Source: an uncultured Aliishimia sp. (GTDB lineage Bacteria; Pseudomonadota; Alphaproteobacteria; Rhodobacterales; Rhodobacteraceae). Taken from it: a stretch of DNA of 64,000 bases. The position numbers and the translations under genes are program-made. The stretch is from contig CAWUIP010000001.1 in NCBI GenBank assembly GCA_963922415.1, positions 3,114 through 67,113 of the forward strand, read 5' to 3'. The notes under the pieces are model-generated. The model was not told the origin of the DNA. It did not search any database and saw nothing but the letters and a program-made list of their open reading frames with translations. The number at the start of each line of letters is the position of its first letter. Within the stretch, counting starts at the first letter, position 1. This document shows, piece by piece, positions 28,602 to 63,350 of the stretch.

Positions 28602-28684
28602 GACGTCACCCAATTTATTGGCGTCATGAAAACTCTAGCGTTCAAGGTTTTATGAAGCGTTAAGTTGAGGGGATATGCAGGCTT

Positions 28685-29005
28685 CTGTTGCCAGGTGCCT
28701 GCGGACCCCGCCTAGACCGGCTAGGGCCTAGGGCTTAAATTCGGTTCGACCCGGACTGCTTACGCAGCCAGAGCAACCGGAGCACGATTGTCGTTTGCAA
28801 TTGTACTGTTTTCGCCGATATCGGTGGCAGACCGCCGAGACAAAGCAAACCCCTTTAGACGTTCGTCGATCCTATTTCGGCCCCCCAGTTTCGAAGGCAA
28901 TCCCCAAACGAAGGATTGCACCGAAAGAGATTTGGTGGAGCCGCCGGGTACCGCCCCCGGGTCCGATCCGCTTATTCCGAGCGCATTTATGTCCATAGCT
29001 CTTGC
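28685..29005 (-). ncRNA. ssrA: Two-piece (circularly permuted) tmRNA gene
   Basis: Minus strand. The acceptor piece ends CCGGG-GGCGGTA-CCCGG CGGCTCC A CCA (CCA at 28933-28935). The coding piece starts GGGGCCGAAATAGGATCGACG (28884 downward). GGGGCCG pairs with CGGCUCC, giving a G3-U70 pair. Tag ORF ANDNRAPVALAA-stop is at 28760-28798. Outer boundaries are approximate. Confidence 0.85.
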
Positions 29006-29096
29006 GAGCAGACCTTACCTATCCTTCACAGCGTCAGTTTTCAAGCGTTCGATGGTCTCAAGTTTCGGCAACTGCGCATCGCACGGGGCGCAGGAA

Positions 29097-42810: not shown

Positions 42811-42900
42811 GGACAGGTGGCCGAGTGGTCGAAGGCGCGCGCCTGGAAAGTGCGTAGGCGGGAGACCGTCTCGAGGGTTCGAATCCCTTCCTGTCCGCCA
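42811..42900 (+). tRNA. tRNA-Ser (anticodon GGA)
   Basis: GGACAGGTGGCCGAGTGGT..., anticodon loop CTGGAAA, long variable arm, T-loop GGTTCGAATCC, encoded CCA. Confidence 0.95.
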
Positions 42901-43080: not shown

Positions 43081-44712
43081 TTATTGGTTTTCGAGCATTT
43101 TTCGCTGTTCGAACCAAACGATCGGGAAGCCCGTTTTGAGGAGGTAGTCCGTGGTCAGATTGATCGGCTGGTTTCCCGACGCAACAAGGTCTAGGATTTC
43201 TGGCGACAGCATCGCCAGATTGACCAGAGAATGAACACGTGGCGCAGGGATCCGCTCTTCGGCGGCAATGTCTACAGGCGACGTGCCGTCTATGATCATC
43301 GCCAACCAGCGTCGCGCCGTCACGATGTTTTGCACCAGGGTTCGATCGATCTCGGGTGGTGCGTCGCCGAGATGTAGTTTGAGCTCCACACCGCGTCGGC
43401 GCATCTGGAAGGAGGATGAAATCGTCAACGCCCCAGGGGCGATGCGCTCTGGCTTACGGTTCAGCAGTCTGGCAACCTCTTCCCTGTCCAGCGCGGTGGT
43501 CACTGAACCTTGTTCCAGGTCCACACGATGCACCAACAAATGAAGTGATGCAGCGTCCCGTGTTTCCGAGAGTCGGCTTTGCACCTGCACCATGTCTGCG
43601 GCGGATGCCGTCGGGACGAGCATTAAGGCCACCGTCGGTTTGCTTAGGTGAGTCTGAACCAGTTCAGCGATCAGGTTTTCCAGCTGCTCTGCCGGGAGCC
43701 GCCAGGCATCGGGATGCCTGGATCTGCGATCCACAACCAGGCGGCGGGAGATGTAGTACCTCAACCGCTTGCCATTCTTGCGGCTGTGGCTAGGGGTGAG
43801 CCGATCGCCAGTCTCGTCAAAGAGTTTTCCAGCAAGAGCGGATTGGTGACTCAGTTGTTTGCTGCCACGTTCCCTGGCAGCCCCCGTTACAAGCAGCTTC
43901 TGGATCTCCTCCCAGGTTTCCGGCTCGATGATTGCAGGATGCTGGCCGTCATACACCTTGTCTTTGTGCCGGATGCGGCCTGCGTAGATTGGATTGGTCA
44001 GGATCGCATAGATATGGCCGCGCGTGAACGGTTTGCCGCCCTTGGAGCATCCATTTGAGCCATTGACCATCCTTGTCCGTAGCCCAAGTCGGTTGGCGCA
44101 TTCCGCTACCTTGCGGACAGTTTTTTTCTGTCGATAGAGGTCGTAGATCGTTCGGATTGTTGCCGCCTCAGCGTCTTCAATGGCCAAAGTTCTACCGACT
44201 GCTTTGTACCCAAGCGGGACGTTGCCGCCCATCCATAGACCCTTCTTCTTCGAGGCCGCGATTTTGTCGCGGATTCGTTCCGCGGTCACTTCGCGTTCGA
44301 ATTGAGCAAAGGAGAGCAGCATGTTCAGCGTCAGCCGTCCCATGCTCGTGGCGGTGTTGAACGACTGGGTGACAGACACGAAGCAAGTCCCAGCCGCATC
44401 CAGCACGTCGACGATCTTTGCGAAGTCAGACAGGGACCTTGTTAGCCGATCGATCTTGTAGACAACAATCTGGTCAACCCGTTTCTCCTTGATCGCTTGC
44501 ATCAACCGTTTCAACGCTGGCCGATCCATATGCCCGCCCGATATGCCACCATCGTCATACCGATCGGGCAGCAACTCCCAACCCTCATGCTTCTGGCTGG
44601 CGATATAGGCCTCGCAGGCCTCTCTTTGGGCATCGAGGGAATTGAAGTCCTGTTCCAATCCCTCCTCGGTGCTCTTGCGGGTATAGAAAGCGCAGCGGAT
44701 GCGTCGCATCAT
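43081..44712 (-). CDS. Large serine recombinase (resolvase/invertase N-domain + recombinase domain)
   Basis: CAFYTRKSTEEGLEQDFNSLDAQ catalytic-Ser region, VYKIDRLTRS, then a long C-terminal recombinase and coiled-coil region. The start overlaps the DUF2924 stop (ATGATG). Confidence 0.88.
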   Translation of the reverse strand: MMRRIRCAFYTRKSTEEGLEQDFNSLDAQREACEAYIASQKHEGWELLPDRYDDGGISGGHMDRPALKRLMQAIKEKRVDQIVVYKIDRLTRSLSDFAKIVDVLDAAGTCFVSVTQSFNTATSMGRLTLNMLLSFAQFEREVTAERIRDKIAASKKKGLWMGGNVPLGYKAVGRTLAIEDAEAATIRTIYDLYRQKKTVRKVAECANRLGLRTRMVNGSNGCSKGGKPFTRGHIYAILTNPIYAGRIRHKDKVYDGQHPAIIEPETWEEIQKLLVTGAARERGSKQLSHQSALAGKLFDETGDRLTPSHSRKNGKRLRYYISRRLVVDRRSRHPDAWRLPAEQLENLIAELVQTHLSKPTVALMLVPTASAADMVQVQSRLSETRDAASLHLLVHRVDLEQGSVTTALDREEVARLLNRKPERIAPGALTISSSFQMRRRGVELKLHLGDAPPEIDRTLVQNIVTARRWLAMIIDGTSPVDIAAEERIPAPRVHSLVNLAMLSPEILDLVASGNQPINLTTDYLLKTGFPIVWFEQRKMLENQ

Positions 44713-45122
44713 TCGACCCCGAAGAAGCGAGGCCCGGACCAACGGGCCCCTGTGATGTGCCGCGCGATGGCTGACAACGACCGCCAGGACCTACCGTCCA
44801 TAACATATCCATCTTCTGTCACCTCGACCTGGTAGCTGCGCCCATTCCACTCCCGCACCAGGTGCGATCCCGGCTTGGCGACCAAAGGCACCGATTTGCC
44901 CGCGGCGATCTGCTTTAACCGGCGCTCTGTTTTGGCGGAGACGCCGCCGAACAACCGTGTTTGCAGCTCCCAGATCAGCACTTTCTTCATGAAGGGTTGC
45001 GAGAGATGCTTGGGTGGCGATCGTCGAAAGGCCGCGCGCCATCGCTCGAGGCAGGCGGATCGGTCAAATCTCTCGATCTCGGCAATCTGGTCGGAAAGGT
45101 CTTTGGGGTCCCTAGACGTCAT
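44709..45122 (-). CDS. DUF2924 domain protein
   Basis: LERWRAAF...PPKHLSQPFMKKVLIWELQ...REWNGRSYQVEV...GRSWRSLSAIARHITGARWSGPRFFG is typical of DUF2924, which accompanies serine recombinases. Confidence 0.8.
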   Translation of the reverse strand: MTSRDPKDLSDQIAEIERFDRSACLERWRAAFRRSPPKHLSQPFMKKVLIWELQTRLFGGVSAKTERRLKQIAAGKSVPLVAKPGSHLVREWNGRSYQVEVTEDGYVMDGRSWRSLSAIARHITGARWSGPRFFGVE

Positions 45123-54722: not shown

Positions 54723-55799
54723 ATGAGCACTTATGACCCGCGCTATAGGCCCAGTGAAAAGCGCTATGATCAGATGCCCTATCGTGCCTGTGGTCGGTCT
54801 GGTCTCATGCTTTCTGCTGTCAGCCTCGGGCTTTGGCAGAACTTCGGCGATGACCGCAGCGAAACCTTCAAAAGGGAGCTCTGCTGCGCCGCTTTCGACA
54901 ACGGCATCACCCATTTCGACAACGCCAACGTCTACGGCCTGCCCCGTGGCTCGACCGAAGAGTTTTTTGGCCGCTTGATGGCGTCAGACTTTTCCGGTCT
55001 GCGCGACGAGATTACGGTTGCTACAAAGGCTGGCTACGACATGTGGCGCGGCCCTTATGGCGAGCGCTGCAGCAGGAAGCATCTCGTTGCGTCTTGCGAC
55101 GCCTCCCTTGCACGGATGGGTCTGGATTATGTCGACATCTTTTATGCGCACCGCTTTGACGACCGGACCCCGGTCGAGGAAACGGCCTCGGCCTTGGATT
55201 ACATCGTGCGATCTGGCAGGGCGCTGTACGTCGGCGTCAGTTCTTACAACAGCCTTGTGGCGCAAGAGCTTACCGACGCGCTGAAATCGCTTGGGACGCC
55301 CTGCATCGCCAATCAGCCGGCCTACAATATCTTCAACCGCTGGGTCGAAAGAGACGGGTTGCTGGATCAGGCCGAGGCGGCAGGCACCGGATTGGTGGCC
55401 TTTACGCCGCTGTGTCAGGGGCTGTTGACCAAGAAATACCTTGGCGGCGTCGCCAAGGACAGCCGCGCGGCACAGGGCGATACCCTGTCCAAAGGGGACG
55501 TGTCGCAAAAGGTTCTGGATGCGATTGCCCAACTCAACACGATTGCCGAGGCGCGCGGTCAATCTCTGGCACAGATGTCCTTGGCTTGGGTGTTGAAAGA
55601 TGCACGGGTGGCCTCGGTTCTGGTCGGCGTGTCGCGGATGTCGCAATTGCTGGAATGCGTTGAAGCCGCGCAGAACACGGCTTTCTCTGAAGCTGAGTTG
55701 CAGCAGATCGACAAGATCTCCGAAGGGATTGATATCAATCCTTGGGCAGATGCCGTCGCCGCGAAACCGATAGGCTCGTGCGTTCAGATTTCTGGTTAG
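54723..55799 (+). CDS. Aldo/keto reductase (YghZ/Tas-like)
   Basis: 358 aa. GITHFDNANVYG, YVDIFYAHRFD and LVAFTPL motifs. Confidence 0.88.
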   Translation: MSTYDPRYRPSEKRYDQMPYRACGRSGLMLSAVSLGLWQNFGDDRSETFKRELCCAAFDNGITHFDNANVYGLPRGSTEEFFGRLMASDFSGLRDEITVATKAGYDMWRGPYGERCSRKHLVASCDASLARMGLDYVDIFYAHRFDDRTPVEETASALDYIVRSGRALYVGVSSYNSLVAQELTDALKSLGTPCIANQPAYNIFNRWVERDGLLDQAEAAGTGLVAFTPLCQGLLTKKYLGGVAKDSRAAQGDTLSKGDVSQKVLDAIAQLNTIAEARGQSLAQMSLAWVLKDARVASVLVGVSRMSQLLECVEAAQNTAFSEAELQQIDKISEGIDINPWADAVAAKPIGSCVQISG

Positions 55800-56611
55800 G
55801 CGCCCGCCTTTCTATTAGCCATTCCTGATAGGATGCGGGACATGATCCGCACGCGCAACGGCCGCGGTGTCATGGCCATGTTGTACCCCAGCACTTTGGA
55901 CAACAGGCCTGGGCGGATCGTCCCGCTGGAGCCCAATGCGCGCACAATACCTTTTGCGACACTTTCAGGGGTGCCAGCCTGTCCCATGGTCATATCCGCA
56001 CGGTCAGAGAACCCGCTGGCGATGGGTCCGGGGGCAACTGAGAGAACATTCACGCCCGAGGGTGCCAGCTCGATCCGCAAACCTTCGGCAAGGGTCTGCA
56101 CATAGGCTTTCGTGGCCGAATAGTTGGCCGTCATCGCATTGCCTTGGAACCCAAGAAGCGAGCCGAATAAGACGATATCGCCAGAGCCGCGTCGCTTCAT
56201 GCCTTGCGCAAGCCAATGGCTTAACCGCAGTACCGCTTCGCAGTTTACGTGCAGCATGTTGATCTCGTTTTCGATATGCACGTCGGCAAGATGCCCGGTC
56301 GCGCCAAAGCCAGCCGCGAGCACGGCGATGTCGGGTAGGCGCCCGGCGCCCTCCGGCGAACTAACCCAATCGATCAAAGCGCCTACGCCTTCGGCGGTTG
56401 CCAAGTCTTGGGCGAGGAGCCGCACGGAAACACCGTGTTTTGTCTCCAGATCCTTGGCTAGCGCGACAAGCTTGTCGCGGCGTCGGGCACACAGCAGCAG
56501 GTTGTTTCCTTTTTCGGCGAGGCTCCGCGCTGTCGCTGCACCGATGCCGTCAGAGGCCCCGGTTACCAGAGCCCAAGGTCCAGAATTAGCTGTGGTTGCG
56601 GAATTACTCAT
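55796..56611 (-). CDS. SDR-family oxidoreductase (copy 1)
   Basis: TGASDGIG cofactor motif and YSATKAY catalytic motif. Starts 1 nt after the DUF2141 copy 1 stop. Confidence 0.85.
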   Translation of the reverse strand: MSNSATTANSGPWALVTGASDGIGAATARSLAEKGNNLLLCARRRDKLVALAKDLETKHGVSVRLLAQDLATAEGVGALIDWVSSPEGAGRLPDIAVLAAGFGATGHLADVHIENEINMLHVNCEAVLRLSHWLAQGMKRRGSGDIVLFGSLLGFQGNAMTANYSATKAYVQTLAEGLRIELAPSGVNVLSVAPGPIASGFSDRADMTMGQAGTPESVAKGIVRALGSSGTIRPGLLSKVLGYNMAMTPRPLRVRIMSRILSGMANRKAGA

Positions 56612-56612
56612 C

Positions 56613-57038
56613 TCATTTCACCTCAATTTGGAGACTGACGCCGGCTTTGGTCACAGCAAAGGATGCTTCGTTAAATCGGGGCGCCCGAAGACGTGGGCGC
56701 ACGTTCCGTGACACACCCCAGGCTTCTTGTGGGAGGCCAAGGGCGTTGGTGTCTACAATCCGATTTCCGTTCATGTCGTGGGCGATTGCCACAGCATAAG
56801 AGCCCGGCACAACATCATTGAAAGTGCAGATCGCGCTTTGCTGGGACGGCCTCACCCAGATTTGCTGCGCGCCACTTTGGCCCATGGGGAAATCAGAACT
56901 CGGGGTGTGAAGAGTGCAGCCAATTTGGCCGCTGTTTGCGGCAAGACCGGTTACCTGAACCCGAACAACTTCCGCCGCGGCCAGGCTGGAAAGCAACGAA
57001 AGTGCCGTCGCGACGGCGAGATCTAAAGGTTTTATCAT
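56613..57038 (-). CDS. DUF2141 domain secreted protein (copy 1)
   Basis: Signal peptide MIKPLDLAVATALSLLSSLAAA. Motifs HDMNGNRIVDTNALGLPQEAWGVS and VRPRLRAPRFNEASF. Confidence 0.7.
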   Translation of the reverse strand: MIKPLDLAVATALSLLSSLAAAEVVRVQVTGLAANSGQIGCTLHTPSSDFPMGQSGAQQIWVRPSQQSAICTFNDVVPGSYAVAIAHDMNGNRIVDTNALGLPQEAWGVSRNVRPRLRAPRFNEASFAVTKAGVSLQIEVK

Positions 57039-57053
57039 AGGGAGTCTCCAGTG

Positions 57054-57103
57054 GTAGACGCTGTCTACTAAGAAAAGTAGCGCTCTGGTTGACGCTGTCA
57101 ACC
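57054..57103. promoter_or_regulatory. Two related palindromes (candidate TetR operators) in the divergent DUF2141/TetR promoter
   Basis: GTAGACGCTGTCTAC (57054-57068) and GGTTGACGCTGTCAACC (57087-57103). Shared consensus GTWGAC-GCT-GTCWAC, centres 34 bp apart. Confidence 0.5.
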
Positions 57104-57122
57104 TGCTGCAGTATTTTTCAGT

Positions 57123-57791
57123 ATGCCCGACCAAATTGCTGAAAATCCTGAAAGACCCTCGGCCCAGACATTGGGAGAGAAGTGTCTAGAAGCGGCTTTG
57201 GGTGCCATCGGCGAGAAGGGCGTGGAACAACTGAGTCTCCGCGATATCGCGCGTCGCTTGGGTGTCAGTCACCAAGCGCCCTACAAACACTTTGCGTCGC
57301 GTGATGATCTGCTTGCTGAAGTGATCCGCCGATGCTTGCAAGACTTTGCCACGGCGCTTCAAGACAGTGAACGCGACGAAGAGGGCGAGCGCCTGCCGCC
57401 CCGGGACGCGATGTTGAGCCTGGGGCAAACCTATTTGGGCTATGCATTGTCAAAACCTTTGGAGTACCGGCTGATGTTCGGAACTGCATGGCCCAGCGTA
57501 GCCAGAGACCGAAAGCTGGATAAAGACGCGCGCGCGGCCTTTGATGTTCTGAAGGCGCGTCTCGGGGCAATTCGGCCATTGTCTCCCGCCGAAGCCCTGG
57601 AAAATGATGCAATGTTCGTCTGGTCGACGATGCATGGACTTGCGAGCATTCTTCAAAGCGAAGCGATGACCTATCTTGGCGTCGAGAAGGCGCGAGAAGA
57701 GGCAATGGCGCACTACGTCATGGGATGCGTGGATCAAACGCTGCGCAGTCTTGGCTATGATGCGCCCCAACCGGTGGGCCCAAGCCCTTAA
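57123..57791 (+). CDS. TetR/AcrR-family transcriptional regulator (1)
   Basis: N-terminal HTH LSLRDIARRLGVSHQAPYKHF. 222 aa. Confidence 0.85.
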   Translation: MPDQIAENPERPSAQTLGEKCLEAALGAIGEKGVEQLSLRDIARRLGVSHQAPYKHFASRDDLLAEVIRRCLQDFATALQDSERDEEGERLPPRDAMLSLGQTYLGYALSKPLEYRLMFGTAWPSVARDRKLDKDARAAFDVLKARLGAIRPLSPAEALENDAMFVWSTMHGLASILQSEAMTYLGVEKAREEAMAHYVMGCVDQTLRSLGYDAPQPVGPSP

Positions 57792-57796
57792 ACCGC

Positions 57797-58408
57797 TCAG
57801 GGTTGCCTCGCACCCGAAAGAACCGCCAAGACGGCAAATCGCAGCTTTTGTCGCACCGCTTTGTCTTGATCCATTTTGAGAGCCACAAAACCGTGCGTTA
57901 CAGCCCATACCGCCGTCGAGGTGTTTTCGACCAACGCATCATTTTCTTGTAAATCCAGAGAATTGGCGACGGCCTGACGCAGTTTCATGCGCAACGCGCC
58001 CCGTGCATCAAAGAGCGATTGATCATCAGCGTTAAGTGCATCCCATCGGAACAGAACCGAAGCCGTACCAGGTTCTTCTGAATAGTACTTCAGGTAGGCT
58101 TCGCAGATCGCCACGAGGCCGTCCGTGGCAGTGTTCTGCGCGTGAACCGCGTTATCAAATCGATCACATAGGTCCTGGAACCCCTTTATTGCAACAGCTG
58201 TCAGAAGCCCCGCGATATTGCCGAAATGATGACCTGGCGCTGCGACTGCAACGTCTGCGCGCCGCGCAACTTCGCGCAGGCTGAATCCCTCTGGTCCGCG
58301 TTCGTTCAACACGTCAATTGCGCTTTCCAATAGGACCACGGGCAAATTGCCGTGGTGGTAAGCTGTCCGTTTCGCCTGTGGCATACGATCCTCATTTTTT
58401 TCGATCAT
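57797..58408 (-). CDS. TetR/AcrR-family transcriptional regulator (2)
   Basis: HTH FSLREVARRADVAVAAPGHHF. Convergent with TetR 1 across a 5-bp gap. Confidence 0.85.
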   Translation of the reverse strand: MIEKNEDRMPQAKRTAYHHGNLPVVLLESAIDVLNERGPEGFSLREVARRADVAVAAPGHHFGNIAGLLTAVAIKGFQDLCDRFDNAVHAQNTATDGLVAICEAYLKYYSEEPGTASVLFRWDALNADDQSLFDARGALRMKLRQAVANSLDLQENDALVENTSTAVWAVTHGFVALKMDQDKAVRQKLRFAVLAVLSGARQP

Positions 58409-58501
58409 ACGGCTTGATTTATACGTTGTCCAGATTCTATACAGTGTTCAGAATCAGAACGGTGTTCGCTTTCTAATCAGCGTATAAATGGAGGTCCGGA
58501 A

Positions 58502-59323
58502 ATGACTGATGCATCGGGACGCGGCAAAGCGAAGGTGGCCCTTGTCACAGGCGCAAGCCAAGGGATTGGCCGCAACATTGCTGATACGCTTGCGCGATCC
58601 GGTTACCGTGTTTTCGGCACCAGCCGCTCAAGCCATTCAAATCGCTCTGGCGTTGACATGCGCGTGCTGGACTTTCGGGACCCACTGTCGATCCAAGACT
58701 GTGTTGATCAGGTCGAGGTTTCGGCTGGAAAGATCGACCTTGTGGTCAACAACGCGGGTTTGACGGTTGTTGCACCGGCTGAAGAGCTTCCTCCGTATCT
58801 GGCAGAGGACATGATGGCCGTGAACTTCTTCGGCCCCGGGCGCCTGGTAAACGCAGTGCTGCCCGGGATGCGCAATCGCAAGTCCGGCCACTTTATTTTT
58901 ATCAGCTCGCTGGGCGGTCTTATGGGCGTGCCTGGGCAAGGGTACTACTGTGCGACCAAGCATGCACTCGAAGGGTATGCTGACGGCCTGGCCGCAGAGA
59001 TAAAGAGCTTTGGCATCGACGTGACCCTGCTGGAACCTGGCTCCTTCGAGACGAACATCATTTCGAAGTCCCCGGAACCTGATTGGCCAACATTGGAAGC
59101 TTATGACGGCACCCGCGAACGTTTGCGGGAAGTGATCACGCAAGACACTGAAAAAGGCGGAGATCCCCAACTTGTCGCTGATGTTGTGCTGCGCGCCGCA
59201 AGCGCGGCCCGTCCGGGGTTGAGATATCGCGTCGATGCGGATGGCAAGCGGGCGGTCTTTTTCAAGTCGCTTCTTCCGGAACGCACATTCTACTCAATCG
59301 TCGCCAAGCGGTTCGGCATGTAA
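58502..59323 (+). CDS. SDR-family oxidoreductase (copy 2)
   Basis: TGASQGIG, NNAG and YCATKHA motifs. Confidence 0.88.
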   Translation: MTDASGRGKAKVALVTGASQGIGRNIADTLARSGYRVFGTSRSSHSNRSGVDMRVLDFRDPLSIQDCVDQVEVSAGKIDLVVNNAGLTVVAPAEELPPYLAEDMMAVNFFGPGRLVNAVLPGMRNRKSGHFIFISSLGGLMGVPGQGYYCATKHALEGYADGLAAEIKSFGIDVTLLEPGSFETNIISKSPEPDWPTLEAYDGTRERLREVITQDTEKGGDPQLVADVVLRAASAARPGLRYRVDADGKRAVFFKSLLPERTFYSIVAKRFGM

Positions 59324-59413
59324 TCGACCGGACTGAAGGACCGAAGGCATCCGTCTTTCTTAGCACCAGACGATTCCGCCAAACGTCAGAGGACCATCCA
59401 AAAGGAGATCCCC

Positions 59414-59854
59414 ATGAACTCAGTTTTAAAGCTCTCCCCACACGTCGTGACAGCGGCGGCCTGTCTGGTGCACTGGGGCACCGGTGCCACTGCCGGGGAT
59501 CTAACGGTCACCGTTTCGGGAGTTAAAGGTACCCAAGGTGTGGTCGTCTGTGTCTTGCACGCTGGCAGCGCGAGCTTTCCCAATGGGAACGGCAGCGAAG
59601 TTGTAACAACCGTTGCACCCGATCCCGCAGGCGTCACGTGCGTTTTCCCGGACGTCACTCCAGGGCAATATACGGTCGCCGCAATGCATGACACCAACGG
59701 CAACGGGCAACCCGACACGAACGCCCTCGGCATTCCGTCAGAGCCTTGGGGGATGTCAAACGGCGTCCGTCCACGGCTACGCGCCCCCCGTTTTGATGAG
59801 GCGTCCTTCCCCGTTACCGATCAAGGCGGCCGCCTCACCATCACTGTCAAATAA
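59414..59854 (+). CDS. DUF2141 domain secreted protein (copy 2)
   Basis: Paralog of 56613-57038. HDTNGNGQPDTNALGIPSEPWGMS and the near-identical VRPRLRAPRFDEASF. AAAGGAG SD. Confidence 0.7.
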   Translation: MNSVLKLSPHVVTAAACLVHWGTGATAGDLTVTVSGVKGTQGVVVCVLHAGSASFPNGNGSEVVTTVAPDPAGVTCVFPDVTPGQYTVAAMHDTNGNGQPDTNALGIPSEPWGMSNGVRPRLRAPRFDEASFPVTDQGGRLTITVK

Positions 59855-59886
59855 CCAATGATCCTCATCCCTAAAGGAGACCCAAG

Positions 59887-60288
59887 ATGAGACGAGCCCT
59901 ACAAATCACGATGTTAGTCGTGGCCTCGGTGCCGCTGATGCTTGGCATTATGAATCTGATCGGCGGCGCTGGTGCCTTTGTCCCGCCCGAACATATCAAC
60001 GCGAATCTGGACAATATGCTGCGCTTCTATGCGGTTTGGTTCACGCTCGTCTTTTTCCTGACGATCTGGTGCGTCCGCAACTTGGATATCGCCGGTCCCG
60101 TGATGCTGATCATGTTCTGCACCATGGCGCTTGGTGGCGTCGCGCGGATCTTCTCGATGACGCAAGTTGGGTTGCCTGATGTTCCGATGCTCGTCGCCAC
60201 AGGCGTTGAAATCGGCGTTTTGGCCTTTATTCCCTGGCACGCTGCTGTCATGCGCCAGTCCCGCCAGGCTGCGGTTGCGGCAGAGTAA
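59887..60288 (+). CDS. Small 4-TM membrane protein (DUF4345-like)
   Basis: 133 aa with four hydrophobic helices. AAGGAG SD. The family assignment is tentative. Confidence 0.5.
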   Translation: MRRALQITMLVVASVPLMLGIMNLIGGAGAFVPPEHINANLDNMLRFYAVWFTLVFFLTIWCVRNLDIAGPVMLIMFCTMALGGVARIFSMTQVGLPDVPMLVATGVEIGVLAFIPWHAAVMRQSRQAAVAAE

Positions 60289-60293
60289 GCCCC

Positions 60294-61544
60294 ATGACCT
60301 CGCGCCTCCCGATTTTTCTGGTCGTTGCCACTGTCGCGATGAATGCTTTGGGCATCGGGATCATACTCCCGGTGATGCCCCAACTCCTTGTGGAGATGGG
60401 GCAGCCCGACATTGCCAGCGCCGCCGCGATTGGGGGGTTCTTGTCGCTCGCCTTTGCAGGAATGCAGGTGCTTTTTGGTCCGTTGCTTGGGGCATTGTCC
60501 GATCAATATGGTCGCAAACCGATCTTGATCGGGTCCATGGCCATCACGGGATTTGACTATGTGATCCTTGCCGTGTCGCCGGTGCTTTGGCTGTTTTTTG
60601 TTGCGCGGCTTGTTTCGGGCACGACGTCAGCCACCTTTTCGGTCGCCAATGCGATCCTGGCTGACGTTACTCCCCCCGAGAAACGCGCCGCGCAGTTCGG
60701 GTTAACCGGGGGCGCTTTTGGCCTTGGCTTTGTCTTGGGCCCGGTGATGGGCGGCCTATTGGGCGAACTTGGTCCCCGGGCACCATTTTGGGCAGCGGCT
60801 GTGCTGTGCTTTCTGGCGGCGACCCTCTGCGCCCTCGTTTTGCCTGAGACCTTGAACAAAGCAAAACGCCGCCCTGTTCGGCTGCGTGATGCCATTCCCT
60901 TTGCCGCTTTCCTAAAACTTCGCCACAAACGCAGCATTTTGCCCTTGGTCCGCGTGAACTTCGTCGATGCGCTTGCGGGCATGGTCTATCCCGCAGTTTG
61001 GGCCTATTTCGCGATTGCCCAGTTTGGCTGGGGACCGGCGATGGTCGGTTGGTCACTTGCGGCTTACGGCCTTTGCTTTGCCGCAGTCCAGGCCGGGCTG
61101 ATCCGCGTTTTCATAAGCCGACTAGGTGAAGCGCGAACGGCCCTATTCGGCCTGTCAGCGGGTGTCGTTGGATTTGTGATCCTTAGCGGGCTGAGCTCTG
61201 GCATGTGGGCCTTTCTATTGACCCCGCTCTTTGCTGCGCGCGCGGTGTCTGCGACCGCGCTGTCGGGCCTGATGTCGCAGCGCACTGGTGAAGACGCACA
61301 GGGCGAACTTCAAGGGATACTGGCGGCCGTCACGGGGGCGTCAACGCTGATTGCAATTCCCCTGCTGACGTCTGTGTTCGCCTTCGCGAACGCGCCCGAG
61401 CGTTCGAACCCCTGGCCGGGGGCGCCATTTGCCGTGGCTGCGATTTTCTCAGTCTCCGGTCTTATCATGCTGATCCTGTCTTTGCGGACGGGGACAGATA
61501 ATTCAGCTCTCAAGAAAGAAGAAGCTTACGCCAATGTCCCATGA
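60294..61544 (+). CDS. MFS transporter (TCR/Tet-like drug:H+ antiporter family)
   Basis: 12 predicted TM helices and an MFS motif A-like GALSDQYGRKPIL. Confidence 0.88.
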   Translation: MTSRLPIFLVVATVAMNALGIGIILPVMPQLLVEMGQPDIASAAAIGGFLSLAFAGMQVLFGPLLGALSDQYGRKPILIGSMAITGFDYVILAVSPVLWLFFVARLVSGTTSATFSVANAILADVTPPEKRAAQFGLTGGAFGLGFVLGPVMGGLLGELGPRAPFWAAAVLCFLAATLCALVLPETLNKAKRRPVRLRDAIPFAAFLKLRHKRSILPLVRVNFVDALAGMVYPAVWAYFAIAQFGWGPAMVGWSLAAYGLCFAAVQAGLIRVFISRLGEARTALFGLSAGVVGFVILSGLSSGMWAFLLTPLFAARAVSATALSGLMSQRTGEDAQGELQGILAAVTGASTLIAIPLLTSVFAFANAPERSNPWPGAPFAVAAIFSVSGLIMLILSLRTGTDNSALKKEEAYANVP

Positions 61545-62136
61545 GATTCATCTGTACCACTGCCCCGGCACAAGATCCGACCGTGTGAAGTTACTGCTGA
61601 ACATGTTGGAGCTTCCCTATACGGAAACTCTGATCGACCAAGCGGCAGGCGGGCACAAAAACCCACAGTATTTGAAGATCAATCCATTCGGGAAATTGCC
61701 AGGGCTGACGCTAGACGGGCAGCTTGTTGTCGAGAGCGCGGCACAGATGTTGCTGATCGCGGACATCGATCCTGAACACCGGATGGCTCCTCGCCCCGGT
61801 GTTCCAGCTCGGGCAGCTTATGTCCAATGGCTTGTTGCAACTCCGACCAGCATAGAGCCGATGGTCATGCCGGCACTCAGCCGCATGCCCATCCCCGGAG
61901 CAAAGAAGAACTTCAAGAAGGCGCTAGAGATCCAAACGGCTCTTTATCAGGGGCCGTATCTTGCTGGACCGAAGCTTACAGCGGCAGATATCTTCTTGCA
62001 TTGGGGCCTGCGCTTTGTGCATCGCTTGGGCCTCTTGGACCAAGATCCGCTTTGGCTTGACTACGCAGAGCGTCTCAACGCTGAGCTTGACTGGCAGGGG
62101 CTCAACGCACCGCAGACGGCGGAGGCGGCACAATGA
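61534..62136 (+). CDS. Glutathione S-transferase family protein
   Basis: 200 aa with a thioredoxin-like N-domain (NPFGKLPGL...ESAAQ) and a helical C-domain. Confidence 0.8.
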   Translation: MSHEIHLYHCPGTRSDRVKLLLNMLELPYTETLIDQAAGGHKNPQYLKINPFGKLPGLTLDGQLVVESAAQMLLIADIDPEHRMAPRPGVPARAAYVQWLVATPTSIEPMVMPALSRMPIPGAKKNFKKALEIQTALYQGPYLAGPKLTAADIFLHWGLRFVHRLGLLDQDPLWLDYAERLNAELDWQGLNAPQTAEAAQ

Positions 62137-62540
62137 CCCCCGAACTTTCGATACCCGTCGGGGCACTGATCCTTCTGACATTTGTGCAGACAATGCTGCC
62201 CGCGACCGTGCGCTGGTTCTTCTCTAACTATGCGGACGGAACGAAGCCCACCTTGTTCGAAGCCATGGGCCCAAGGGATCGCGCGCCGCACATGACCTCT
62301 CGATTTGGGCAACGCGCTGAACGGGCGATGGCAAATCAAATCGAAGCCTTGGCGATGTTTGCGCCGGCGCTGGCGCTGGTTGCCGCCATGCAGAGCGCGC
62401 CTCTTTGGGCTGTTTGGCTCTTTGTCGGAGCGCGGACGATTTACGTCCCAGCGTATCTGTTTGGCATTTTTGGTCTGCGGTCTGCGGCGTGGACAGCCGG
62501 TTTGGTCGCGACCGTGCTCACGTGGGCTGCGGCGCTTTGA
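62133..62540 (+). CDS. MAPEG-family membrane protein
   Basis: 135 aa with 4 TM helices and a RAMANQIEALAMF-type motif. ATGA overlap with the GST gene. Confidence 0.7.
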   Translation: MTPELSIPVGALILLTFVQTMLPATVRWFFSNYADGTKPTLFEAMGPRDRAPHMTSRFGQRAERAMANQIEALAMFAPALALVAAMQSAPLWAVWLFVGARTIYVPAYLFGIFGLRSAAWTAGLVATVLTWAAAL

Positions 62541-62582
62541 ATGAACAATACCCTCTAAATCTACCTGCGAGGAAATTGGAAG

Positions 62583-63350
62583 ATGGACTTCAAATCTAAG
62601 AAAATCGTTATCACTGGAGGGAGTATCGGTATCGGCAAACAGCTTGCCGTAGACCTCAAAGCCCGCGGGGCAGAAGTTCTGATTTGCGCACGCAACGAAG
62701 ACAAACTGGCCGAAATCGCCGCCCTTCACCCCGATATTCACACGGTTGTTTGTGATGTTCGCAAAGACGCCGATGTAGAGGCCCTGCACAAAGCTGCTTT
62801 GGAAAAGCTTGGGTCGGTAGATGTCCTCTTTAACAACGCGGCTTTGTTTCGTCAGTTGGACTTAATGTCGGATACCTCCGCGGCGCAAGACTGGATGGAC
62901 GAGATCGATGTCAATGTGAACGGGACCCTTCGTGTCACACACGCGTTTTTGCCGGATTTGCGGAAGGCGCCGCAGGCGACTATTGTCAATTTCACTTCGG
63001 GCTTGGCCTATGCGCCGGTCGCAGATGCGCCGGTATATAGCGCGTCAAAGGCGGCTCTCGCCTCTTGGACGCAATCTCTGCGCTTCCAGCTCCGAAAAAC
63101 AAACGTCAGTGTAATCGAGGTCAGCCCACCGGTTGTGGACACCCGAATGAACCAAAATAATCCCAGCTCTGAAGGCAGAAAGAAGTGGAGCACAGCGGAT
63201 TTCTGCAAGGTCGTGCTTGACCAGTTTGCGAAGGATCCGACGCGCGACATCCTTGTTGGGGATGGCAAAGCTGCCAAAACAATGGCGAGGATCGCGCCAG
63301 GCTTTACCTTCCGCATGATGAACCCGGCCGAAGGTCGCTCAAAGGCTTAA
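62583..63350 (+). CDS. SDR-family oxidoreductase (copy 3)
   Basis: TGGSIGIG, NNAA and YSASKAA motifs. Confidence 0.88.
   Translation: MDFKSKKIVITGGSIGIGKQLAVDLKARGAEVLICARNEDKLAEIAALHPDIHTVVCDVRKDADVEALHKAALEKLGSVDVLFNNAALFRQLDLMSDTSAAQDWMDEIDVNVNGTLRVTHAFLPDLRKAPQATIVNFTSGLAYAPVADAPVYSASKAALASWTQSLRFQLRKTNVSVIEVSPPVVDTRMNQNNPSSEGRKKWSTADFCKVVLDQFAKDPTRDILVGDGKAAKTMARIAPGFTFRMMNPAEGRSKA

Follow-up and report, generated by a model that had tools for sequence, protein, structure and literature searches.

A conserved DUF2141–reductase–TetR cassette lying tail to tail with a second TetR-type cassette in an uncultured Aliishimia sp.

Introduction

Operons governed by TetR-type repressors, such as TetR/TetA, AcrR/AcrAB and the TtgR-type operons, have a divergently oriented regulator gene and palindromic operators in the common promoter region. 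Here we describe a region that shares this layout, positions 55796-63350 of a 64-kb stretch of DNA from an uncultured Aliishimia sp. (the window, which hereafter means the whole stretch). Two genes for proteins of the DUF2141 family stand there among genes for short-chain dehydrogenases/reductases (SDRs), TetR-type regulators and membrane proteins. Cassette A consists of the regulator gene TetR1, two 15-bp palindromes, DUF2141-1 and SDR1. Cassette B, which sequence comparison separates from it as a conserved unit of its own, consists of TetR2, SDR2, a DUF4345 gene and a major facilitator superfamily (MFS) pump. The likeness to the TetR efflux operons extends to the MFS protein of cassette B, which is distantly related to Tet(A), and to relatives of cassette A that stand beside resistance-nodulation-division (RND) pumps; unlike those operons, cassette A has as its main cargo a DUF2141 protein, predicted to be exported, and an SDR, with no pump. 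The region is an undescribed variant of a familiar type of system, the TetR-controlled stress operon.

A looser analogy can be drawn with CusF, a small periplasmic chaperone encoded inside the RND efflux operon cusCFBA. DUF2141 would likewise be a small, exported, beta-rich protein, and at some loci (L035 and L066, below) its gene lies beside or after RND genes. It differs from CusF in showing neither sequence similarity nor significant fold similarity, in lacking a Met/His metal site, and in that most of its cassettes are without a pump.

The literature on DUF2141 gave no function, merely the co-location with crtG in Sphingomonadales, and searches under PF09912, IPR018673 and COG4704 returned nothing relevant to the family. 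In many Sphingomonadales, DUF2141 adjoins the carotenoid hydroxylase gene crtG (PMC5989583; PMC9241875). That pair resembles the present one in that a member of the same Pfam family stands beside an enzyme for a hydrophobic membrane compound; it differs in that the partner is a carotenoid 2,2'-beta-hydroxylase, that no TetR, SDR or operator is reported there (PMC5989583), and that no crt genes are present here.

Results

Cassette A is a conserved unit

In the window, cassette A occupies positions 55796-57791. DUF2141-1 (56613-57038, minus strand), the first gene of its operon, encodes a 141-aa protein predicted to be an exported beta-sandwich (PF09912, 92.0 bits; gathering cut-off 24.4 bits), and the second gene, SDR1 (55796-56611, minus strand), encodes a classical NAD(P)-dependent SDR (adh_short, 128 bits). 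The regulator gene TetR1 (57123-57791, plus strand; TetR_N and TetR_C_33 domains) diverges from DUF2141-1. The public gene call for DUF2141-1 gives 141 aa from the ATG at 57038, which also fits the homologues and is most likely the true start; the TTG at 57134 chosen by the open reading frame (ORF) lister is an unlikely one.

The earlier note on this DNA had proposed that DUF2141, SDR and TetR genes occur together beyond chance. We assembled 82 DUF2141 loci, 80 by scanning the GTDB species, each represented by one genome, with a DUF2141 alignment and two from metagenome look-ups, and the six-frame ORFs of all 82 were searched with profiles built from the window proteins. An SDR1-type gene lay within 500 bp of DUF2141 in 32 loci (rate ratio 18, Poisson p=4e-29), and a TetR1-type gene within 1.5 kb in 42 (rate ratio 21, Poisson p=2e-40), as compared with distal flanks 3-8 kb away in the same loci, which held 13 SDRs and 5 TetRs in 591 kb. 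The DUF2141-adjacent SDRs were, in full-length alignments, 39-61% identical to SDR1 and 25-33% identical to SDR2 or SDR3; the cassette regulators were 37-54% identical to TetR1 and 23-32% identical to TetR2. By these identities, the SDRs form one orthologous type (SDR1-type) and the regulators another (TetR1-type). The window segment, with its operator pair, its DUF2141 gene and adjacent SDR1-type and TetR1-type genes at orthologue-level identity, is one more instance of the same cassette. The proposed co-occurrence thus holds, across phyla, for the gene types of cassette A and does not extend to the second module.

Among the 82 loci, DUF2141>SDR>TetR was the commonest layout (14 loci); DUF2141>TetR (12), DUF2141>SDR (5) and TetR<DUF2141>SDR, the last of which is the layout in the window, came next in that order. 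The taxa include Caulobacter, Rhizobium, Shimia, Reyranella, many Burkholderiales, Aquimonas and Lysobacteraceae, together with metagenome-assembled genomes (MAGs) labelled Bacteroidota, Acidobacteriota (Bryobacterales) and Opitutales, at least four phyla by label in all. Locus L005 has an SDR with 61% identity to SDR1 and a TetR with 47% identity to TetR1, and in a neighbour-joining tree DUF2141-1 is sister to the cassette copy of a Shimia MAG. Cassette A is also present in Caulobacter vibrioides, a genetically tractable species, at loci L003 (strain DSM 9893) and L083. In MAGs labelled Bacteroidota, Opitutales, Erythrobacter and Lysobacteraceae, the DUF2141-SDR1-type pair is kept without TetR or operator.

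The pair is also tightly packed. At 29 of 31 loci, the stop codon of DUF2141 and the start codon of the SDR share the overlapping sequence ATGA, whereas 1 nt lies between them in the window; from this arrangement, the two genes are taken to be coupled at translation. A hydrophobicity heuristic found a signal-like N-terminus on DUF2141 and no signal or transmembrane (TM) segment in SDR1, so that the two proteins appear to act across the inner membrane from each other. The cofactor motif TGxxxGxG and the catalytic motif YxxxK are present in SDR1 (as TGASDGIG and YSATK), SDR2 and SDR3, all of which exceed the adh_short (PF00106) cut-off.

Cassette A carries a paired operator

The TetR1/DUF2141-1 intergenic region contains two perfect 6-3-6 palindromes, O1 (GTAGACGCTGTCTAC, 57054-57068) and O2 (GTTGACGCTGTCAAC, 57088-57102), whose starts are 34 bp apart. 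With up to one mismatch allowed, they are the sole matches in the window (0.21 expected), and neither the upstream region of cassette B nor any other part of the window has this operator. Of the 82 loci, 39 have a match to the consensus GTWGAC-N3-GTCWAC, and at 37 it lies upstream of DUF2141 at a distance of no more than about 450 bp. At the DUF2141 loci it is mostly paired, with a start-to-start spacing of 31-34 bp, and its spacer is held to R-N-Y, i.e. purine and pyrimidine at two of the three positions. A TetR gene was nearby in 34 of the 37 operator-positive loci versus 5 of the 45 operator-negative ones (Fisher odds ratio 91, p=3e-14).

In a promoter scan, O2 contained a -35-like TTGACG for TetR1. 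It would also overlap a TTGACA on the opposite strand for DUF2141-1, with O1 just downstream, and the arrangement of the two operators would then be the standard repressor layout. Literature searches on the operator half-sites together with TetR returned noise only, and neither GTWGAC-N3-GTCWAC nor the ligand was found described in any paper. The nearest solved relatives of TetR1 include the mycobacterial Rv1816 and Mce3R, at weak E-values (best E=2e-10) that make them too distant to serve as a clue to the ligand.

DUF2141 is a predicted exported beta-sandwich with a conserved loop

The second copy, DUF2141-2 (59414-59854, plus strand; 146 aa; PF09912, 92.8 bits), is a diverged paralog situated between SDR2 and the DUF4345 gene. 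The paralogy claimed in the earlier note is sound: the two proteins are 46% identical (E=2e-40), and the motifs quoted there are common to both. Its statement that each bears a signal peptide needs some qualification, since the heuristic finds a hydrophobic, signal-like N-terminal region in both, that of DUF2141-2 being short. Such an N-terminus was found in 56 of 60 family members by the same heuristic.

In a six-sequence alignment including both copies and in an alignment of 60 sequences, the family-invariant residues F55, P56, G84, D93, N95, N97, D101, P108, E110, W112, G113, S115, P120, R123, P125 and E129 are intact in both window copies. They concentrate in two stretches, D93-x-N95-x-N97-x3-D101 and E110-x-W112-G113-x-S115. 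Two cysteines, C46 and C76, are nearly invariant in the 60-sequence alignment, which suggests a disulfide in an exported protein. The D93-D101 loop resembles DxDxDG-type calcium sites, and on this motif DUF2141 probably binds Ca2+.

The AlphaFold model, which is confident (mean pLDDT 88.4), is a beta-sandwich with a long conserved loop. Foldseek returned no match at E<=0.001 against the PDB (best E 0.012) or against a viral library; the weak top folds were pilotins, CnaB and pilin domains, which are generic beta-sandwiches, with query-normalised TM-scores of at most 0.41. A PDB sequence search with DUF2141-2 gave chance matches to antibody light chains only. Judged from the predicted model, DUF2141 is without a significant structural relative. 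The CnaB/SdrD-B beta-sandwiches, which are among the best non-significant folds, have Ca2+ sites that the Asp/Asn-rich loop of DUF2141 resembles; they are, however, domains of Gram-positive surface adhesins, whereas DUF2141 is predicted to be free in the periplasm.

An exhaustive search gave 13,810 representatives of the family after clustering at 50% identity, most of them about 145 aa long and some with an N-terminal anchor, with two TM segments or with several. A few proteins (P0241-P0245, P0295, P0334 and P0349) consist of three to four tandem DUF2141 domains, or of two fused to a PRC-barrel domain. These tandem and PRC-barrel-fused copies suggest that the role is one of binding or scaffolding and not of catalysis.

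The operator pair recurs with other cargo, including pumps and monooxygenases

In the reverse direction, metagenome contigs scanned for nothing but the operator pair gave 120 loci, of which 83 have a TetR gene, 47 an SDR gene and 10 a DUF2141 gene beside the operator. The regulators at these loci were 24-60% identical to TetR1, and the other first genes encode ABM and luciferase-like monooxygenases, patatin-like and alpha/beta hydrolases, MFS proteins and outer-membrane efflux (OEP) proteins. A TetR1-like regulator was present at 33 operator-pair loci, at least 13 of which had an SDR1-type gene and at least 6 a DUF2141 gene; these counts are lower bounds, since many contigs are short. An operator dedicated to DUF2141 is incompatible with these numbers. 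DUF2141 is better described as an optional cargo of this TetR subfamily, whose commonest cargo is a reductase. The recurrence of DUF2141 under TetR, as put forward in the earlier note, stands at the DUF2141 loci themselves, but the TetR/operator system is broader than that. At 17 of the operator loci, next to a GTTGAC-N3-GTCAAC pair, the first gene is a 321-aa ORF without any Pfam or NCBIfam match (for example L181 5260-6225, plus strand), which may be a real uncharacterised target of the TetR subfamily or a shadow ORF in GC-rich DNA.

Two kinds of partner recur around the cassette. In 8 of 30 genome-set cases, the gene that diverges on the other side of the operator encodes a small ABM protein; a carotenoid link through this protein was considered and rejected, its CrtA match reaching E=0.004 and 16 bits against a cut-off of 300. 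RND pump genes are immediate neighbours of DUF2141 in about 10 loci. One of these (L066 3053-9696) reads TetR_C_33< MFP> RND> DUF2141> SDR1-type>, MFP being a membrane fusion protein, after which comes an ORF whose ABM match falls below threshold (21.5 bits; cut-off 23.1), and another (L035 2420-8366) reads ABM> MFP> RND> DUF2141>. The DUF2141-adjacent RND permeases could be placed in neither the drug nor the metal class, as most fall well short of the NCBIfam cut-offs for multidrug and for heavy-metal pumps alike.

Cassette B normally lacks DUF2141

The ORF list has eleven genes between 55796 and 63350, placed as the earlier note had them, and its domain calls were borne out by a Pfam search in which every named domain exceeded its Pfam cut-off. 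TetR2 (57797-58408, minus strand; TetR_N and TetR_C_33), the regulator gene of cassette B, lies tail to tail with TetR1; its public gene call begins 8 codons later than the ORF-list start. The first gene across from it, SDR2 (58502-59323, plus strand; adh_short, 149 bits), encodes a classical SDR of a PRK06179-like subfamily (237 bits against a model cut-off of 310); it was also considered as the 3-ketodihydrosphingosine reductase KdsR (NF049977) and rejected, at 196.3 bits against a cut-off of 400. After DUF2141-2 come the DUF4345 gene (59887-60288, plus strand; PF14248, 60.3 bits, cut-off 26.5), whose product is a membrane protein with four TM-like segments and on which the literature gave nothing relevant, and the gene for a DHA-type MFS exporter (60294-61544, plus strand; MFS_1, 135.5 bits). 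The exporter scored 293.8 bits with the Tet(A)/(B)/(C) model NF012174, the cut-off of which is 475; on these scores, it is related to Tet(A) yet is not a tet gene.

Three further genes continue in the same direction. A GST-like gene (61534-62136, plus strand) overlaps the MFS stop codon; GST_N-type domains alone were detected in its product at E<0.01 (GST_N, 43.1 bits), and GstA reached 41.7 bits against a cut-off of 198. A gene for a MAPEG-family membrane protein (62133-62540, plus strand; PF01124, 66.1 bits, cut-off 23.4) overlaps the GST stop codon, and SDR3 (62583-63350, plus strand; adh_short, 169 bits), the last co-directional gene, encodes a third classical SDR, from another subfamily (21% identical to SDR2) that is not the type found beside DUF2141 in the genome loci. 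The seven genes from SDR2 to SDR3 are co-directional, and the distances between them, -11 to +90 nt, would suit a single transcription unit.

SDR2 orthologues (54-69% identity) were examined in five contexts. They are divergent from a TetR_C_33 regulator in all five, with 36-43% identity between these regulators and TetR2, and are followed directly by a DUF4345 gene in three; an MFS gene is likewise present in three, and DUF2141 in none. Three loci (L209-L211) are colinear with the window, with identities of 40-43% for TetR2, 65-69% for SDR2 and 59-69% for the DUF4345 protein, and L209 and L210 also carry MFS orthologues (59-66%). The window has the gene set of cassette B and departs from these three loci by the inserted DUF2141-2. 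The second module, which the earlier note had counted as a further DUF2141-SDR-TetR linkage, is thus a TetR2-SDR2-DUF4345-MFS unit that is normally without DUF2141. Between the TetR and SDR2 genes, L210 (6964-7001) and L211 (6912-7001) contain paired TGATCA-N-TGATCA palindromes. The corresponding imperfect inverted repeat in the window (58428-58460, including GTTCAGAaTCAGAAC) is a tentative candidate for the TetR2 operator, as its match to this pattern is loose.

That DUF2141-2 is an insertion follows from the absence of DUF2141 at all five orthologous loci. In the neighbour-joining tree it is basal to the cassette-A clade and its branch is long, and its closest relatives (55-56% identity) sit in TetR<DUF2141>SDR cassettes, one of them with Caulobacter-like housekeeping neighbours and found in hundreds of assemblies. 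The simplest reading of these sequences is that a DUF2141 gene of the cassette-A type was duplicated and then inserted between SDR2 and the DUF4345 gene. Equivalents of GST, MAPEG and SDR3 were not found after cassette B in the five orthologous loci, nor was a MAPEG gene found in the related loci examined. As these three genes stand beside no relative examined, they are local additions and do not belong to a conserved system.

Discussion

We favour, with moderate confidence, the reading that two independent cassettes meet tail to tail in this region, each repressed by its TetR regulator and inducible by a ligand, and that the DUF2141 protein and the SDR of cassette A act on the same lipophilic compound. 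The most likely role of cassette A would be a ligand-inducible defence against such a compound on both sides of the inner membrane. When no inducer is present, TetR1 dimers would occupy O1 and O2, overlapping the divergent promoters, and silence both the regulator gene itself and the DUF2141-1/SDR1 operon, and a lipophilic small molecule would release them. In the periplasm, DUF2141 would be at work as an exported, disulfide-containing and probably Ca2+-binding beta-sandwich, which most likely binds the compound or hands it over. In the cytoplasm, the SDR would use NAD(P)H to reduce a carbonyl group of this compound or of something derived from it, and pumps, where present, would expel the compound. 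Cassette B would follow the same general logic, having gained its DUF2141 copy through an insertion, with GST, MAPEG and SDR3 accreted to it. The ligand-inducible detoxification suggested in the earlier note fits the ABM proteins, RND and MFS pumps and hydrolases at other loci; the function itself is still a matter of inference.

A bolder extension, which we regard as doubtful, would place DUF2141 in a class of its own among periplasmic proteins that handle substrates, working across the inner membrane with a reductase dedicated to it and with RND or MFS pumps at the loci that have them. A lipophilic toxin or signal would be caught by DUF2141 in the periplasm and handed on, to be exported or reduced, and DUF2141 would thus be an organic-compound counterpart of CusF-type metallochaperones under the GTWGAC-N3-GTCWAC TetR subfamily. 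If DUF2141 is indeed a periplasmic helper of efflux or detoxification, it would be a new component in the Gram-negative handling of lipophilic toxins; if not, the region would be an ordinary pair of TetR-controlled stress operons. Cassette A offers a defined entry point to a large family lacking a published function, and the question is narrowed by a defined regulator and operator, a translationally coupled reductase and recurring efflux and monooxygenase neighbours. The inducer, once found, would point directly to the substrate.

Several points weigh against the favoured reading. The function is read from gene context, and the Ca2+ site from a motif. Promoter-like matches are no commoner in the region than in shuffled sequence, so that the promoter assignments are inferential. 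DUF2141 is optional in the regulon, as the 10 of 120 operator-pair loci indicate, and stands alone in 37 of the 82 DUF2141 loci. These 82 were retrieved by peptide patterns from the window's own subfamily, and the 39% linkage therefore holds for that subfamily and not for all 13,810 clusters. Several of the phylum labels are those of MAG bins, in which mis-binning could have occurred. The translational coupling of an exported protein to a cytoplasmic enzyme is without explanation. Finally, the topology of a 425-aa fusion protein (P0356; L212 1899-3176), in which an SDR1-like domain, a TM-like helix and DUF2141 follow one another and whose gene adjoins a TetR1-like gene, fits a DUF2141/SDR pair acting across the membrane, but lends it weak support because it is a singleton from one short contig of 3.8 kb, where a lost stop codon or a sequencing error is possible.

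The main rival, which we consider unlikely, is that the system serves to handle envelope lipids or pigments. In the periplasm, DUF2141 would carry a hydrophobic component of the membrane, for instance a carotenoid, polyisoprenoid or unusual lipid; the SDR, as a long-chain keto-lipid reductase, would produce or alter this component, and TetR would sense a lipid intermediate. The neighbourhood of crtG in many Sphingomonadales (PMC5989583; PMC9241875) speaks for it, as do the patatin-like lipases among the operator-adjacent genes and the weakly matching Rv1816 and Mce3R among the solved relatives of TetR1. The best named NCBIfam match of SDR1 is mycolate reductase (CmrA, NF040690), a long-chain beta-keto reductase, but at 154.2 bits SDR1 falls far under the cut-off of 380 and is not assigned to it. 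Neither the window cluster nor the cassette loci that were examined contain genes for lipid or carotenoid biosynthesis; the partners that recur are efflux pumps and ABM monooxygenases, not enzymes of biosynthesis, and a repressor-controlled unit of two genes resembles a stress response more than housekeeping envelope synthesis.

Less probable still is that DUF2141 is a periplasmic metal-binding or general envelope-stress protein, which would bind Ca2+ or another cation and protect the envelope by itself, next to a co-regulated but chemically unrelated SDR. The invariant D93-D101 loop with its resemblance to a calcium site, the weak resemblance to CnaB, pilin and pilotin beta-sandwiches, the many solitary DUF2141 genes and the occasional tandem multi-domain proteins or PRC-barrel fusions would all suit such a protein. 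The family is, however, without a Cys/His/Met-rich metal site, and the ligands of TetR regulators are usually organic. The coupling to the SDR in particular, with its ATGA overlap and with the pair kept even where TetR is missing, argues for a shared task and makes a stand-alone metal-binding role less likely.

A recent inverted duplication of the whole SDR, DUF2141 and TetR module, which the earlier note had described as mirror-duplicated modules, is highly improbable and already refuted by the separate orthologue sets of the two halves: two DUF2141, two SDR and two TetR_C_33 genes do lie within 3.5 kb in roughly opposed orientation, but SDR1 and SDR2 are 27% identical (the SDR family background) and TetR1 and TetR2 28% (as any two family members), compared with 46% for the DUF2141 pair, the gene order is unmirrored (TetR1|DUF2141->SDR versus TetR2|SDR->DUF2141), the operators are unlike, and cassette B is normally without DUF2141. 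By these comparisons, the DUF2141 gene alone was duplicated.

Genomic surroundings

An aldo/keto reductase gene (54723-55799) converges on SDR1, the gene ends overlapping by 4 nt, and is no part of cassette A at other loci; upstream of it lie genes for a sugar ABC transporter, a GH32 glycosidase and two more dehydrogenases. Farther away, a tRNA-Ser gene (42811-42900, plus strand) is directly followed by a large serine recombinase gene (43081-44742, minus strand), and just beyond SDR3, on the metagenome scaffold that the sequence matches, there are two DUF5681 genes and genes for an N6/N4 DNA methylase and a ParB_N protein. With the tRNA-Ser and recombinase genes on one side and the DUF5681, methylase and ParB_N genes past SDR3 on the other, both cassettes may perhaps lie on an integrated island; a direct repeat of the end of the tRNA-Ser gene, which would mark an island boundary, was looked for within the window and not found. 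At 28674-29048, the window also encodes a two-piece (permuted) alphaproteobacterial tmRNA with the tag peptide ANDNRAPVALAA, a marker of Alphaproteobacteria.

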